Below are positions 5,101 through 47,281 of a stretch of DNA of 64,000 nt, one piece after another. The position numbers were made by a program, and so were the translations under genes. The number at the start of each line of letters is the position of its first letter. The stretch's first letter is position 1. Source of the stretch: Escherichia coli (lineage in GTDB: Bacteria > Pseudomonadota > Gammaproteobacteria > Enterobacterales > Enterobacteriaceae); NCBI RefSeq assembly GCF_003334355.1, contig NZ_QOWP01000001.1, one strand, 5' to 3'. The notes under the pieces are model-generated. The model had not been told where the DNA came from and did no database searches. It was given only the letters and a program-made list of their open reading frames with translations.

Positions 5101-6635
5101 CTATCGAGGACTTAGCGCAGCTCATTTTCGACCTCAAGCAGGTTAACCCGAAAGCGATGATCTCCGTGAAGCTGGTTTCCGAACCGGGAGTAGGCACCAT
5201 CGCGACTGGCGTGGCAAAAGCTTATGCGGACTTGATCACCATCGCAGGCTATGACGGCGGCACCGGCGCAAGTCCGCTTTCATCGGTGAAATACGCAGGC
5301 TGTCCGTGGGAGCTGGGGCTTGTTGAAACCCAGCAGGCGCTGGTTGCTAACGGCTTGCGTCACAAGATCCGTTTGCAGGTCGATGGCGGCCTGAAAACGG
5401 GTGTCGATATCATCAAGGCGGCGATTCTCGGCGCAGAAAGCTTCGGCTTCGGCACTGGCCCGATGGTGGCGCTCGGCTGTAAATATCTACGTATTTGCCA
5501 TCTGAACAACTGCGCAACGGGTGTAGCAACTCAGGATGACAAACTGCGTAAGAACCACTATCACGGCCTGCCATTCAAGGTGACGAATTACTTTGAGTTT
5601 ATCGCCCGTGAAACCCGCGAGCTGATGGCACAGCTTGGCGTAACACGTCTGGTGGATCTGATTGGTCGCACCGACCTGCTGAAAGAGCTGGACGGTTTCA
5701 CCGCCAAACAGCAGAAGCTGGCGCTGTCGAAGCTGCTGGAGACTGCCGAACCGCATCCAGGTAAGGCACTCTACTGCACCGAAAACAACCCGCCGTTTGA
5801 TAACGGCCTGCTGAACGCGCAGTTGCTGCAACAGGCGAAACCGTTTGTCGATGAGCGCCAGAGCAAAACCTTCTGGTTCGATATTCGCAACACCGACCGT
5901 TCTGTCGGCGCGTCGCTTTCAGGCTATATCGCCCAGACGCACGGCGATCAGGGGCTGGCAGCCGATCCTATCAAAGCGTACTTCAACGGCACCGCAGGCC
6001 AGAGCTTCGGCGTGTGGAACGCGGGCGGCGTGGAACTGTACCTGACCGGTGATGCCAACGACTATGTCGGTAAAGGCATGGCGGGCGGCTTAATCGCCAT
6101 TCGTCCTCCGGTTGGTTCCGCCTTCCGCAGCCATGAAGCAAGCATTATCGGCAACACCTGCCTGTATGGCGCGACCGGTGGTCGTCTGTATGCCGCAGGC
6201 CGCGCGGGTGAACGTTTCGGCGTGCGTAACTCCGGTGCTATCACCGTGGTAGAAGGCATTGGCGACAACGGTTGTGAATATATGACGGGTGGTATCGTCT
6301 GCATTCTGGGTAAAACCGGCGTTAACTTCGGTGCGGGCATGACCGGCGGTTTCGCTTACGTTCTCGATGAAAGCGGCGATTTCCGCAAACGCGTTAACCC
6401 GGAACTGGTCGAGGTCTTAAGCGTTGACGCTCTGGCGATCCATGAAGAGCATCTGCGTGGTCTTATCACCGAGCATGTGCAGCATACCGGCTCTCAGCGC
6501 GGTGAAGAGATTCTGGCGAACTGGTCAACCTTCGCCACTAAATTTGCGCTGGTTAAACCGAAGTCCAGTGATGTAAAAGCACTGCTGGGTCACCGTAGTC
6601 GTAGCGCAGCTGAGTTGCGCGTGCAGGCGCAGTAA
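2175..6635 (+). CDS. gltB: Glutamate synthase (NADPH) large subunit
   Basis: ORF 2067..6635 (1522 aa). A GGGAGG RBS sits 8 nt upstream of the ATG at 2175, giving [19 protein letters not shown]... with the amidotransferase N-terminal Cys. The FMN-binding and GXGXG regions are visible. An alternative upstream start lies near 2082. Confidence 0.95.
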
Positions 6636-8066
<1,431 letters not shown>

Positions 8067-43498: not shown

Positions 43499-44473
43499 AT
43501 GCAGGCGTTACTTTTAGAACAGCAGGACGGCAAAACTCTCGCATCAGTACAGACTCTGGACGAAAGTCGCCTGCCGGAGGGCGATGTCACGGTCGATGTT
43601 CACTGGTCGAGCCTGAACTATAAAGATACGCTGGCGATTACCGGTAAGGGAAAAATCATCCGTAATTTTCCGATGATTCCTGGGATCGATTTTGCCGGAA
43701 CTGTACGCACCAGCGAAGATCCGCGTTTTCATGCCGGTCAGGAGGTGTTACTCACTGGCTGGGGCGTTGGTGAAAACCACTGGGGTGGGCTGGCGGAGCA
43801 GGCGCGAGTGAAAGGTGACTGGCTGGTTGCCATGCCGCAAGGGCTGGACGCGCGTAAAGCAATGATTATCGGTACTGCCGGTTTTACCGCCATGCTGTGT
43901 GTGATGGCGCTGGAAGATGCCGGTGTTCGCCCGCAGGACGGGGAGATTGTCGTGACGGGTGCCAGTGGTGGCGTCGGCAGTACCGCCGTGGCGCTGCTGC
44001 ATAAGTTGGGTTATCAGGTCGTTGCCGTTTCCGGTCGCGAAAGTACCCATGAATATCTGAAAAGTTTAGGTGCTAGCCGTGTTCTCCCTCGTGATGAGTT
44101 TGCCGAATCCCGTCCTCTGGAAAAACAAGTCTGGGCTGGGGCAATTGACACCGTTGGCGACAAAGTGCTGGCAAAAGTGCTGGCGCAAATGAATTACGGC
44201 GGCTGCGTGGCGGCCTGTGGTCTGGCGGGTGGTTTTACTCTGCCAACCACGGTCATGCCATTTATTCTGCGTAATGTCCGTTTGCAAGGGGTGGATTCAG
44301 TAATGACGCCACCAGAACGCCGCGCACAAGCCTGGCAGCGACTGGTCGCCGATTTACCGGAATCATTCTATACCCAGGCGGCAAAAGAGATATCTCTGGC
44401 AGAGGCACCGAAGTTTGCCGAGGCCATCATTAATAACCAGATCCAGGGTCGCACGCTGGTGAAGGTTAACTAA
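43499..44473 (+). CDS. acuI: Acrylyl-CoA reductase AcuI (YhdH), MDR-family oxidoreductase
   Basis: 324-aa ORF of the quinone-oxidoreductase-like family. Confidence 0.9.
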   Translation: MQALLLEQQDGKTLASVQTLDESRLPEGDVTVDVHWSSLNYKDTLAITGKGKIIRNFPMIPGIDFAGTVRTSEDPRFHAGQEVLLTGWGVGENHWGGLAEQARVKGDWLVAMPQGLDARKAMIIGTAGFTAMLCVMALEDAGVRPQDGEIVVTGASGGVGSTAVALLHKLGYQVVAVSGRESTHEYLKSLGASRVLPRDEFAESRPLEKQVWAGAIDTVGDKVLAKVLAQMNYGGCVAACGLAGGFTLPTTVMPFILRNVRLQGVDSVMTPPERRAQAWQRLVADLPESFYTQAAKEISLAEAPKFAEAIINNQIQGRTLVKVN

Positions 44474-45151
44474 CCATTTAGCAAGGAATAATAAGAGAGG
44501 GAACTCATTTTGAAATCATTATTCAATCGGTTAACGGGAAAAGCGGTTAGCCGGACAGCTTTCGTCGAACACCTTGGTCAGGAAGTTATACAACATCATC
44601 CAAACTGGAAAGTCATGATTTCGACTGACCACAAATTGATGCGCATTGATACTCCACTAAACAGCTATTATTGATACGCCTCCGTCGCCTGTTAGGTTTA
44701 TGGTGCTTTGCCTGGGCGACGCTACGCTTAGCCCCTTACTTATTTCTGGTACCATGGGGTGAATAATCTGATTTTGTTTGACTACAAATTAATCACTCGA
44801 ACCTATTTAATGCTGAGCATTGTCAATCGGTTAATTTTGCGTGCTTTAGCATTCACATCTATCCAGACGATGCAGTGAAAATTGGGTAATCCCCAGCAAC
44901 CGCTGCGTAATGTCGTCTATCTTGTCGCGATCCTGGCATCCCTACATTATTTGTGGTCTGTGAAGATTATCTCATTGCAGCCCCTCATCTTCGCAGGGCT
45001 GGCTTTTCAGCTTTTCACCTTACGTTATAAGAAGTTCCGTCGATGATGGCGCTAATTTCGTGAATTGTGCGGCTTGTTGCAAATTACACGGTGTTGAAGG
45101 TTATTTACATGTTAGCTGTTGATTATCTTCCCTGATAAGACCAGTATTTAG

Positions 45152-45179
45152 CTGCCAATTGCTACGAAATCGTTATAAT
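45152..45179 (+). promoter_or_regulatory. Putative sigma-70 promoter of accBC
   Basis: -35-like ctgcca (45152-45157), a 16-bp spacer and a consensus -10 TATAAT at 45174-45179. This would give a leader of roughly 265 nt before the accB ATG, in line with the known long accBC 5' UTR. Confidence 0.55.
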
Positions 45180-45450
45180 GTGCGACCTCGTCCTCCCTGA
45201 CGCAGTTTTTGCGCTGCGGAAAAGGTGACATTGGCGCAACGAAGGTATATTTTGTTTTTTGCCGGAGGATAGCAGCAGATCGCTGCACAATGTCCGTCAA
45301 GTCTAACATTGACACTCTGGGGCAAAATAGACCGGCGTCCCGGCCTGCTGGAATTTATCGCTATGCATACAGCTGTCGGGGCATACGCTTTACAGACGGC
45401 GGTGAAACGCCTGTCACAATCACACTAAACAAAGAGTACGGAACCCACTC

Positions 45451-45921
45451 ATGGATATTCGTAAGATTAAAAAACTGATCGAGCTGGTTGAAGAATCAGG
45501 CATCTCCGAACTGGAAATTTCTGAAGGCGAAGAGTCAGTACGCATTAGCCGTGCAGCTCCTGCCGCAAGTTTCCCTGTGATGCAACAAGCTTACGCTGCA
45601 CCAATGATGCAGCAGCCAGCTCAATCTAACGCAGCCGCTCCGGCGACCGTTCCTTCCATGGAAGCGCCAGCAGCAGCGGAAATCAGTGGTCACATCGTAC
45701 GTTCCCCGATGGTTGGTACTTTCTACCGCACCCCAAGCCCGGACGCAAAAGCGTTCATCGAAGTGGGTCAGAAAGTCAACGTGGGCGATACCCTGTGCAT
45801 CGTTGAAGCCATGAAAATGATGAACCAGATCGAAGCGGACAAATCCGGTACCGTGAAAGCAATTCTGGTCGAAAGTGGACAACCGGTAGAATTTGACGAG
45901 CCGCTGGTCGTCATCGAGTAA
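45451..45921 (+). CDS. accB: Biotin carboxyl carrier protein of acetyl-CoA carboxylase
   Basis: 156-aa ORF with the biotinylation motif [10 protein letters not shown] and an Ala/Pro-rich linker. Confidence 0.97.
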
Positions 45922-45931
45922 CGAGGCGAAC

Positions 45932-47281
45932 ATGCTGGATAAAATTGTTATTGCCAACCGCGGCGAGATTGCATTGCGTATTCTTCGTGCCTGTAAAGAA
46001 CTGGGCATCAAGACTGTCGCTGTGCACTCCAGCGCGGATCGCGATCTAAAACACGTATTACTGGCAGATGAAACGGTCTGTATTGGCCCTGCTCCGTCAG
46101 TAAAAAGTTATCTGAACATCCCGGCAATCATCAGCGCCGCTGAAATCACCGGCGCAGTAGCAATCCATCCGGGTTACGGCTTCCTCTCCGAGAACGCCAA
46201 CTTTGCCGAGCAGGTTGAACGCTCCGGCTTTATCTTCATTGGCCCGAAAGCAGAAACCATTCGCCTGATGGGCGACAAAGTATCCGCAATCGCGGCGATG
46301 AAAAAAGCGGGCGTCCCTTGCGTACCGGGTTCTGACGGCCCGCTGGGCGACGATATGGATAAAAACCGTGCCATTGCTAAACGCATTGGTTATCCGGTGA
46401 TTATCAAAGCCTCCGGCGGCGGCGGCGGTCGCGGTATGCGCGTAGTGCGCGGCGACGCTGAACTGGCACAATCCATCTCCATGACCCGTGCGGAAGCGAA
46501 AGCTGCTTTCAGCAACGATATGGTTTACATGGAGAAATACCTGGAAAATCCTCGCCACGTCGAGATTCAGGTACTGGCTGACGGTCAGGGCAACGCTATC
46601 TATCTGGCGGAACGTGACTGCTCCATGCAACGCCGCCACCAGAAAGTGGTCGAAGAAGCGCCAGCACCGGGCATTACCCCGGAACTGCGTCGCTACATCG
46701 GCGAACGTTGCGCTAAAGCGTGTGTTGATATCGGCTATCGCGGTGCAGGTACTTTCGAGTTCCTGTTCGAAAACGGCGAGTTCTATTTCATCGAAATGAA
46801 CACCCGTATTCAGGTAGAACACCCGGTTACCGAAATGATCACCGGCGTTGACCTGATCAAAGAACAGCTGCGTATCGCTGCCGGTCAACCGCTGTCGATC
46901 AAGCAAGAAGAAGTTCACGTTCGCGGCCATGCGGTGGAATGTCGTATCAACGCCGAAGATCCGAACACCTTCCTGCCAAGCCCAGGCAAAATCACCCGTT
47001 TCCACGCACCTGGCGGTTTTGGCGTACGTTGGGAGTCTCATATCTACGCGGGCTACACCGTACCGCCGTACTATGACTCAATGATCGGTAAGCTGATTTG
47101 CTACGGTGAAAACCGTGACGTGGCGATTGCCCGCATGAAGAATGCGCTGCAGGAGCTGATCATCGACGGTATCAAAACCAACGTTGATCTGCAGATCCGC
47201 ATCATGAATGACGAGAACTTCCAGCATGGTGGCACTAACATCCACTATCTGGAGAAAAAACTCGGTCTTCAGGAAAAATAA
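45932..47281 (+). CDS. accC: Biotin carboxylase
   Basis: ATG at 45932 ([33 protein letters not shown]...), 449 aa, ATP-grasp fold. Confidence 0.97.

Follow-up and report, generated by a model that had tools for sequence, protein, structure and literature searches.

Three decayed genes and the accBC promoter and leader probably account for the gene-free kilobase upstream of accB in Escherichia coli

We propose that the 977-bp gap between the end of acuI (44473) and the start of accB (45451) consists of the remnants of three older genes together with the known accBC promoter and leader, a reading to which we assign a probability of roughly 85%. The gap (44474-45450) lies in a window of 64,000 nucleotides from one E. 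coli contig, in which accB occupies 45451-45921 according to both the ORF and the annotation (features are on the plus strand unless stated otherwise). The original prediction that about 1 kb at this place holds no intact gene was correct. Each of the 5426 complete E. coli genomes has the same gap, with 90-100% sequence identity, and the copy in this strain is 99.8% identical to that of K-12. Most E. coli RefSeq records carry no annotation in it; K-12 has yrdF and yrdE. Should our reading hold, a "gene-free" kilobase in the best-studied bacterium would be fully explained by gene decay, with no new element needed.

The enterobacterial ancestor would have carried the order acuI - msrP - msrQ - aroQ - accB - accC; the order csrD/acuI/msrP/msrQ/accB is seen in about 45 Enterobacterales. 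In the Escherichia lineage, acuI presumably acquired an inserted DUF1444-like gene as its downstream neighbour, msrP would have been deleted along with the 5' portion of msrQ, and aroQ would have collapsed to about 140 nt. A further deletion, carried by about 88% of E. coli including this strain, probably joined the DUF1444-like gene at its codon 48 to msrQ at approximately codon 66, its products being yrdF' and yrdE', which would be neutral and do nothing detectable. The live part of the gap would then be 45047-45450, comprising a sigma-70 promoter, a FadR-like box just upstream of it and a start at about 45187. Once aroQ had decayed, its 5' UTR and start codon would have persisted together with its final 48 nt, as the 264-nt untranslated leader of accB. 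What this analysis shows directly is what each piece is, how the genes are ordered across species, where transcription starts, and that neutral stretches and constrained ones evolve differently.

The upstream half begins with a spacer after acuI (44474-44509), within which GAGAGGGA is the ribosome-binding site for the DUF1444-like gene; E. albertii and strain CFSAN004176 have the same spacer ahead of the intact gene (276 aa). It is followed by the pseudogene yrdF' (44510-44652), the first 48 codons of the DUF1444-like gene with a TTG start, onto which K-12 yrdF (b4697, 3404495-3404637) maps. Residues 1-48 of the intact protein are matched at 94% (tblastn), after which the reading frame is cut off by a deletion whose junction is visible in the alignment with the intact gene. 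That intact gene is present in 669 of the 5426 E. coli genomes (12%) and in E. albertii. Family searches with its protein gave weak DUF1444/PRK13668 matches, no PADLOC match and no PDB relative.

The remainder of the upstream half is yrdE' (44653-45046), the 3' two-thirds of msrQ (approximately codons 66-199), to which K-12 yrdE (b4646, 3404638-3405031) corresponds. Its translated pieces match the NCBIfam MsrQ model NF003831 at positions 68-99 (E 1.7e-7) and 142-193 (E 2.4e-10), residues 101-193 of Citrobacter MsrQ are recovered at 59% (tblastn), and the DNA is 75.5% identical to K-12 msrQ. About 65 N-terminal codons are absent, the frame changes near 44755 and in-frame stops are present; in other strains PGAP calls a 'YedZ' pseudogene here, described as 'frameshifted; internal stop; missing N-terminus'. 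Polymorphisms fall on codon positions 1, 2 and 3 in the numbers 6, 13 and 12. Similarity to MsrQ, a broken and truncated frame and no purifying selection on the coding frame are thus found together, as in an msrQ pseudogene. MsrQ (YedZ) is the haem-binding membrane subunit of the MsrPQ methionine sulfoxide reductase. The remnant keeps its HYLWSVK motif and occupies the place of msrQ in other Enterobacterales, about 45 of which have intact msrP-msrQ at this position, but it lacks the N-terminal third and the partner msrP. Given this truncation, the frameshift and the stops, no MsrQ product is possible from it; the working msrPQ of E. coli has another location, adjoining hiuH. Both yrdF and yrdE have been listed among pseudogenes (PMC7648144), and the K-12 elements agree with those described here in position and boundaries, with no essential difference. 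What we add are the parent genes of the two remnants and their neutral evolution.

Sequence diversity, calculated from samples of 13-25 E. coli, divides the gap in two. Nucleotide diversity (pi) is 0.027 in yrdF' and 0.040 in yrdE', compared with 0.021-0.044 at third codon positions, and since the remnants are about as diverse as synonymous sites they appear to evolve neutrally. In the region 45047-45450, on the other hand, 5 of 404 nt segregate (0.012 per site), whereas the third codon positions of accB and accC have 0.08-0.13 segregating sites per site. The promoter and leader therefore carry 6- to 10-fold fewer polymorphisms than synonymous sites, and this deficit argues that they are functional. 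Divergence from E. albertii follows the same division, with 0.16-0.20 in the remnants, 0.018 in the promoter and about 0.02 in the late leader. The accB synonymous sites are also unusually similar to those of E. albertii (7/156 vs 75/450 in accC), so that the low divergence of the leader could reflect recombination or a locally shallow genealogy instead of constraint. We considered a function for the 3' part of the msrQ remnant, where polymorphism is lower, and rejected it; its divergence from E. albertii is neutral (0.164).

The constrained part starts with the former msrQ-aroQ intergenic spacer (45047-45129, by alignment), now upstream of the promoter, in which a TGTGC...GCA motif is all that aligns with the spacer after msrQ in other genera; of its 83 nt, 1 segregates among 25 E. 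coli and 8 differ from E. albertii. The accBC sigma-70 promoter itself (45152-45179) consists of a -35 CTGCCA, a 16-nt spacer and a -10 TATAAT. Of all sigma-70-like matches in our consensus scan this is the best, with 10 of 12 consensus positions. It has zero polymorphisms in 25 E. coli, and the promoter block is invariant across genera from Escherichia to Yersinia. The TATAAT at 45174-45179 had already been pointed out in the original prediction, together with a leader of about 265 nt, and both stand: published SMRT-Cappable-seq data place the accBC start at NC_000913.3 3405172 in two conditions, which is 45187 here, 8 nt after the -10, and gives a leader of 264 nt. Hexamers, spacing and a mapped start within the expected 6-9 nt after the -10 are those of a sigma-70 promoter. 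The SMRT-Cappable-seq transcript from 45187 covers b3255 and b3256 and ends at a terminator after accC. Two other published start-site tables hold no entry for the accBC locus. The known accBC promoter is far upstream of accB and followed by a long leader, as is the case here. Ancestrally, it is the promoter of aroQ-accBC.

Just upstream of the promoter is a palindrome, CTGATAAGACCAG (45132-45144), with its centre some 49 nt before the start site. The whole 64-kb window contains no other match to CTGRTNNGAYCAG, of which chance would give 0.06, and in genera as far apart as Escherichia, Yersinia and Photorhabdus the palindrome is unchanged or almost so. It resembles FadR operators, matching 11 of 13 positions of the fadB core CTGGTACGACCAG. 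The accBC promoter and AccB autoregulation were reportedly described by Li and Cronan in 1993 and by James and Cronan in 2004, and activation of the acc genes by FadR is said to have been reported by My and colleagues in 2015. FadR may bind the predicted box. PMC11602165 states, in the manner of a review, that the acc operons are acted on by FadR, and AccB autoregulation and the role of FadR are summarised in PMC3896788 and PMC11602165.

The leader is the part of the gap for which we offer an origin. Its first portion (45187-45289) aligns to the aroQ 5' UTRs of other genera and is the ancestral aroQ 5' UTR, in which the GGTGACA and GAAGGTATATTTTGTTTTTT blocks are conserved and a hairpin is variable. 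It leads to the former aroQ start codon, ATG 45290-45292, whose context GCACAATG aligns with the aroQ start in species where the gene is intact. We had also considered an aroQ start mutated to ATC at 45279, which was rejected as the alignment puts the orthologous ATG at 45290. From this codon to 45380 the sequence is unrecognisable and would be the site of the collapse; an nhmmer search with the aroQ profile found no aroQ signal in 45293-45380, which we putatively call collapsed aroQ by position only, between the orthologous start codon and 3' end. Of 78 nt compared in the segment 45290-45380, 2 segregate within E. coli and 2 differ from E. albertii. Recognisable sequence resumes with the last 48 nt of aroQ (45381-45428), encoding 15 residues and the TAA stop. 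This block matches positions 406-453 of 453 of an aroQ nhmmer profile built from 23 species (E 3.5e-13), and in its translation 14 of 15 residues are identical to residues 136-150 of E. cloacae AroQ (tblastn). It has zero polymorphisms within the E. coli sample and is also retained in Citrobacter, Superficieibacter and Phytobacter, all of which have likewise lost aroQ. The final 22 nt (45429-45450) are the aroQ-accB spacer and accB translation initiation region, nearly invariant in Enterobacterales and with zero polymorphisms.

The aroQ remnant was thus recognised by similarity, at the 3' end only, and by its orthologous position between msrQ and accB, behind the same promoter; at 69 of 80 loci an intact aroQ immediately precedes accB. 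This arrangement is that of the gamma-proteobacterial aroQ-accB-accC cluster, where aroQ encodes the type II 3-dehydroquinate dehydratase. Order and spacing are shared with the E. coli locus, as are the promoter, 5' UTR, aroQ start codon, aroQ 3' end, 22-nt spacer and accB. Compared with an intact aroQ, about 310 of 453 nt are gone or unrecognisable, so that no enzyme can be made, and the rest is untranslated leader. The accBC leader is long because it contains a collapsed aroQ gene, a cause that the original prediction had missed. K-12 annotation has no aroQ remnant in the accBC leader, and among papers that mention aroQ with accB and accC we found nothing on the E. coli leader. That the accBC leader is the remnant of a lost aroQ is the sole fresh point made here; the rest is mostly known biology. 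For the control of the first committed step of fatty-acid synthesis, the locus can now be dissected with a map consisting of a conserved promoter with a FadR-like box, an ancestral 5' UTR, Escherichia-specific filler and a retained 70-nt block before accB.

The last ~70 nt are retained wherever aroQ was lost, and we infer that the constrained leader, these nucleotides above all, is needed for accB translation and/or AccB autoregulation. In intact aroQ genes, third-position variability is 0.275 in the last 16 codons vs 0.488 elsewhere. One could go further and regard the accBC leader as a co-opted aroQ remnant whose constrained 3' ~160 nt, with the final 48 nt of aroQ that all lineages lacking the gene have preserved nearly intact, would form a cis-acting RNA element for AccB autoregulation or accB translation, a tentative view that we consider rather unlikely. 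If it were true, the regulatory element would be older than the loss of aroQ and would overlap the aroQ coding sequence in most Enterobacterales. Folding of the whole leader is not more stable than that of shuffled sequences (z = -1.1). For a hairpin at 45395-45415, pairing holds in 91% of cells, but many cells are unpaired; one of its pairs is changed on both sides in 6 sequences and another is unpaired in 11. Near it, Term-seq records a minor RNA 3' end of low read count inside the leader (45388, K-12 3405373), 63 nt before accB. This end does not depend on Rho (score 0.93), and as an intrinsic terminator it scores 2.1, short of the cut-off of 3.

Less likely still, and in our opinion doubtful, is that the early leader (45187 to about 45260) acts as a transcription attenuator or as the source of a short stable RNA, like the Yersinia small RNA Ysr190. 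An Rfam scan at a permissive threshold returned Ysr190 (RF02764, Yersinia sRNA 190) as its sole match, at 45154-45253, with 25.3 bits (E 0.68) against a gathering score of 66, which leaves the E. coli sequence outside the family. In Yersinia and Serratia, Ysr190 is located just upstream of aroQ and scores 77-131 bits; the model covers the -10 box and the first ~70 nt of the transcript, and our sequence is the orthologous stretch, from which no short RNA is known in E. coli. The model describes a long hairpin followed by a U-run. As an attenuator, a 5' stem-loop closing before the U-rich UAUAUUUUGUUUUUU would end some transcripts and might be a site of AccB autoregulation, a version we find no less doubtful. 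In its favour, the early leader of E. coli keeps the invariant GAAGGTATATTTTGTTTTTT block, the stem of its hairpin differs in sequence between genera while complementarity is kept, and, according to a passage in PMC11602165, AccB reportedly autoregulates accBC transcription without a DNA-binding motif. Single-sequence folds place a stem of variable sequence recurrently at the same position, but their z-scores are weak (mean -0.7), and RNAalifold on a sequence-only alignment of the early leader gave no consensus structure, probably since the variable hairpin is out of register in such an alignment. Against such a mechanism, the terminator scan detected nothing in the early leader, Term-seq has no 3' end at K-12 3405200-3405299, and the full-length transcripts from 45187 run on to the accC terminator. 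Moreover, since the Rfam model takes in the -10 box, its boundaries are not those of a real RNA.

Another reading is that some short ORF in the gap encodes a functional small protein, which we regard as very unlikely. The statement that 45209-45478 is the only ORF here is true for ORFs of at least 60 aa; two 54-aa ORFs and several shorter ones exist besides. The 54-aa ORFs, at 44510-44674 (derived from yrdF') and 44882-45046 (C-terminal part of msrQ), are readable pieces of the pseudogenes and improbable as genes, as is a third candidate, the 62-codon ORF that runs from the old aroQ ATG (45290) as far as 45478 and by which translation might be coupled to accB. The yrdF' ORF retains a Shine-Dalgarno sequence, but polymorphisms in both yrdF' and yrdE' are distributed evenly among codon positions with no third-position excess, and in E. 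albertii the msrQ-tail ORF has many non-conservative changes. The 62-codon ORF is open in E. albertii despite two mutually cancelling 1-nt indels; nevertheless, the frame-shifted block makes the 62-aa product differ between the two species, the Citrobacter equivalent has 9 codons only, and E. coli has AGCAG, a mutated form, where species with intact aroQ have an AGGAG-like sequence before the aroQ ATG. The short ORFs have no family matches, and a published small-ORF ribosome-profiling table holds no entry near these coordinates. The 89-aa ORF 45209-45478, with its TTG start and out-of-frame overlap with the start of accB, had been suspected to be spurious and is indeed not conserved as a gene. 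It contains ATG 45290, the old aroQ start codon.

Finally, that a small RNA missing from the annotation, or else a cis-regulatory region, lies in 44474-45150 (~570-680 bp), as the original prediction had entertained, is the least credible reading of all, despite the missing intact gene, the short dyads, 4 promoter-like matches in 44300-45600 (1.9 +/- 1.1 expected) and a somewhat lower within-species diversity towards the 3' end of the msrQ remnant (0.057 segregating sites per site in 44888-45046): pseudogene remains explain the sequence fully, 12% of E. coli have a different arrangement at this place, and 44474-45150 yielded neither the promoter and terminator, nor the conservation, nor the Rfam match of a small regulatory RNA. 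Promoter-like sites in it are not above chance and the terminator scan returned no terminator-like site where shuffled sequence averages 1.5, in agreement with the earlier remark that no clear promoter-plus-terminator pair could be seen. Conservation above the neutral level, by which an upstream element was to be recognised, is not found in 44510-45046, where diversity equals that of synonymous sites and the divergence of the remnants from E. albertii is likewise neutral; nor do the SMRT-Cappable-seq and Term-seq tables, which are incomplete for small RNAs, list starts or 3' ends in this interval. The dyad cagcccctcatcttcgcagggctg at 44978-45001 (no strand assigned), noticed earlier and present as described, has no T-run and was not called by the terminator scan; it lies inside the msrQ remnant and corresponds to the codons for ...PQPLIYAGLA... 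of intact msrQ.

The 977 bp between acuI (43499-44473) and accB (45451-45921) have a counterpart in every one of 5426 complete E. coli genomes (identity 90-100%; 100% in strain 720632). They can be fully accounted for by two pseudogene remnants (yrdF' and yrdE'), the former msrQ-aroQ spacer and a mapped promoter, all of which are already established, and by a long accBC leader that appears, from comparison of accB loci, to be a collapsed aroQ gene. In most of 80 accB loci sampled from other species, the sequence just 5' of accB is coding, namely aroQ, the gene for type II 3-dehydroquinate dehydratase (for example in E. cloacae, 6527-6979 of fetched locus L082, NCBIfam 253 bits). Of these loci, 69 carry an intact aroQ immediately 5' of accB, and they span Enterobacterales, Vibrionales, Aeromonadales, Pasteurellales and others. 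A profile built from the nucleotide sequences of 23 aroQ genes aligns to 45381-45428 at its positions 406-453 of 453, stop codon included (E 3.5e-13), and 14 of the 15 residues encoded by this tail are the same as E. cloacae AroQ 136-150. When aligned with species holding an intact aroQ, E. coli retains the GGTGACA and GAAGGTATATTTTGTTTTTT blocks of the aroQ 5' UTR together with the GCACAATG start context, and the ATG at 45290 is the old aroQ start codon. The same profile found no aroQ similarity in 45293-45380; the gene has lost about 310 nt to deletion or scrambling. Rfam family Ysr190 reaches 77-131 bits just 5' of aroQ in Yersinia and Serratia; its match in the window is weak (25 bits, 45154-45253), and this stretch is the orthologue of the Yersinia/Serratia site. 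Since the Ysr190 model takes in the -10 box, it does not mark where a real RNA begins and ends. The aroQ remnant is not annotated in the K-12 reference record, and our literature search found no mention of an aroQ origin for the leader, which is a modest comparative observation and not a new kind of element. Gilliamella (L060, L061) and Schmidhempelia (L066), both Orbales, are also without aroQ upstream of accB, as is a second AccB-like locus of Candidatus Pantoea persica (L078), so the aroQ-accB linkage has been lost several times.

E. coli, Citrobacter, Superficieibacter and Phytobacter have all kept the final 48-66 nt of aroQ, together with a 22-nt spacer, in almost identical form. From the -10 box to accB there are 274 nt in Citrobacter versus 277 nt in E. 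coli, and leaders of such near-equal length may go back to the same collapse event; Superficieibacter and Phytobacter represent separate states of aroQ decay. In intact aroQ (23-species alignment), third-position variability is 0.275 in the last 16 codons against 0.488 elsewhere, which ranks third-lowest of 135 sliding windows. Retention of the aroQ end after loss of the gene, and its low third-position variability where the gene is intact, suggest that sequence required to express accB extends about 70 nt 5' of the accB start, into the end of aroQ. At the edge of this region sits a weak Term-seq 3' end, at K-12 3405373 (window 45388), which is not Rho-dependent and falls under the intrinsic-terminator cut-off (PMC7815308). 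Codons 61-80 of intact aroQ form a second stretch of low third-position variability in the 23 species (about 0.30 versus about 0.5 elsewhere).

The promoter and leader length of the original prediction hold up well. Our promoter scan ranks TATAAT at 45174-45179, which has CTGCCA 16 nt upstream of it, first among sigma-70-like matches, and SMRT-Cappable-seq in two conditions records a transcript from NC_000913.3 3405172 to 3407308/3407310, spanning b3255 and b3256 (PMC6131387, supplementary file 3). This start corresponds to window 45187, 8 nt past the -10 box, and gives a leader of 264 nt where about 265 nt had been estimated. The block TCTTCCCTGATAAGACCAGTATTTAGCTGCCAATTGCTACGAAATCGTTATAAT shows little or no change between Escherichia and Yersinia, Serratia, Photorhabdus, Erwinia or Brenneria. 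The 64-kb window matches CTGRTNNGAYCAG just once (0.06 expected), at CTGATAAGACCAG inside this block (45132-45144), and we take this box to resemble FadR operators (fadB core CTGGTACGACCAG). According to the summary in a 2024 paper, the acc operons have been proposed as direct targets of FadR (PMC11602165), and AccB autoregulates accBC though it is without a DNA-binding motif (PMC11602165; also PMC3896788).

An attenuator in the early leader is possible but not supported. Single-sequence folds place a stem at the same position with a sequence that varies by genus (e.g. CGCAG/CUGCG, CAGGGG/CCUCUG, CAGACC/GGUCUG); against this reading stand their weak z-scores (mean -0.7), a whole-leader fold no more stable than shuffles (z = -1.1), the lack of an RNAalifold consensus structure in the early leader, and the lack of a 3' end at the leader's U-rich tract in the published Term-seq table. 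Further downstream, 91% of cells are paired in a hairpin at 45395-45415; one of its pairs differs on both sides in 6 sequences, and two others are often unpaired. The predicted 89-aa TTG-start ORF (45209-45478) is present and runs out of frame across the accB start, yet it had been called the only ORF in the interval, which is inaccurate, as two 54-aa ORFs lie at 44510-44674 and 44882-45046, and these proved informative. A 62-codon ORF (45290-45478) leads from the old aroQ ATG into accB and stops 27 nt beyond the accB start. The frame remains open in E. albertii (6840-7028 of locus L007), where a 1-nt deletion is cancelled by a 1-nt insertion at a distance of 24 nt and the product differs over the frame-shifted block; the Citrobacter equivalent has 9 codons. 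The small ORFs of the gap gave no family matches, and a published table of small ORFs from ribosome profiling lists nothing near their coordinates.

The K-12 MG1655 reference annotation places pseudogenes yrdF (b4697) at 3404495-3404637 and yrdE (b4646) at 3404638-3405031, that is, at 44510-44652 and 44653-45046 in the window (accB as anchor, K-12 coordinate minus 3359985). Both are given as pseudogenes in a 2020 paper (PMC7648144), while RefSeq E. coli records mostly have no annotation in the gap, and in some of them a pseudogene is called as 'YedZ' or 'cytochrome b family'. yrdE' is an msrQ remnant: the NCBIfam MsrQ model matches two translated pieces (profile positions 68-99 and 142-193 of 212), and the DNA is alignable to msrQ from about codon 66 through the end, broken by a single frameshift near 44755 and by in-frame stops. 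The dyad reported at 44978-45001 is indeed there and, in the DNA alignment, consists of leftover msrQ codons for ...PQPLIYAGLA.... yrdF' is the first 48 codons of a 276-aa DUF1444-like gene. Among 13 E. coli, SNPs fall on codon positions 1/2/3 as 6/13/12 in the msrQ remnant and 4/4/3 in yrdF'; neither has any sign of coding constraint. Just 3' of the msrQ stop, 45068-45085 (TGTGCGGCTTGTTGCAAA) carries a TGTGC...GCA motif, the sole cross-genus conserved feature of the msrQ-aroQ spacer (compared with L008-L082), which might form a weak hairpin or bind a protein.

The remnants evolve neutrally, whereas the promoter and leader do not. In the 13 E. coli, pi is 0.027 in yrdF' and 0.040 in yrdE', and 0.031, 0.021 and 0.044 at third codon positions of acuI, accB and accC. 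Across 25 E. coli, 45047-45450 has 5 segregating sites in 404 nt (0.012 per site), with zero in the promoter (45130-45186) and in the last 83 nt of the leader; third codon positions of accB and accC have 0.077 and 0.127 per site. Divergence from E. albertii is 16-20% in the msrQ remnant, 1.8% in the promoter block, 11.5% in the early leader and about 2% in the late leader, a last value to which recombination or a shallow local genealogy may contribute, because accB synonymous sites are also unusually similar (7/156 third positions differ from E. albertii, against 75/450 in accC). No differences at all from E. albertii occur in 45759-45958. Strong selection at the codon or mRNA level, or past recombination, could explain the accB similarity; the within-species polymorphism contrast is independent of it. 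The suggestion of a small RNA or regulatory region upstream of the promoter fails on the very observations that the original prediction had set against it: conservation is not above neutral, and the published SMRT-Cappable-seq and Term-seq tables, which leave room for small RNAs, list no start or end sites there. The Rfam scan found no family in this part, promoter-like sites do not exceed chance (4 versus 1.9 +/- 1.1 expected), and the terminator scan found no terminator-like site in the gap.

The DUF1444-like gene is a presence/absence polymorphism. The portion absent from the window is found in 669 of 5426 E. coli genomes, in which the gene is intact with its own terminator, as it is in E. 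albertii; no other sampled genus has a copy. The intact 276-aa gene directly follows acuI, for example in CFSAN004176 (L003 2537-3367) and in E. albertii (L007 5308-6123), and its resemblance to DUF1444 is weak (Pfam i-E 0.006; NCBIfam PRK13668 23 bits). Between E. coli and E. albertii, codon positions 1+2 differ by 3.3% and third positions by 15.2%, so where intact it is a real gene under purifying selection. Neither form can have arisen from the other by one deletion: more of msrQ survives in the common form (from about codon 66), whereas the rarer form has the whole DUF1444-like gene but msrQ only from about codon 97. In strain 23AR0998 (L004 3198-3895), an IS1A has inserted into the terminator hairpin that follows the gene.

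Nearly all Enterobacterales among the 80 loci, including Citrobacter, Enterobacter, Erwinia, Pantoea, Serratia, Yersinia, Hafnia, Edwardsiella and Budvicia, have the order csrD (opposite strand), acuI, msrP, msrQ, accB. Only in Escherichia, among the Enterobacterales sampled, is msrP missing, msrQ truncated and the DUF1444-like gene present. The msrQ remnant (44653-45046) has 75.5% DNA identity to K-12 msrQ at the hiuH-msrPQ locus (L096 1084-1719) and 68.9% to the syntenic Citrobacter msrQ. This greater closeness to the working E. coli msrQ suggests that the Escherichia lineage duplicated or relocated its msrPQ, after which the original copy decayed. On the other side of accB, accC is followed in some E. 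coli (L001 5400-5977, L002, L098, L102) by genes for an aldose 1-epimerase family protein (DUF4432) and a PfkB kinase on the opposite strand, and in K-12 and the window directly by yhdT-panF.
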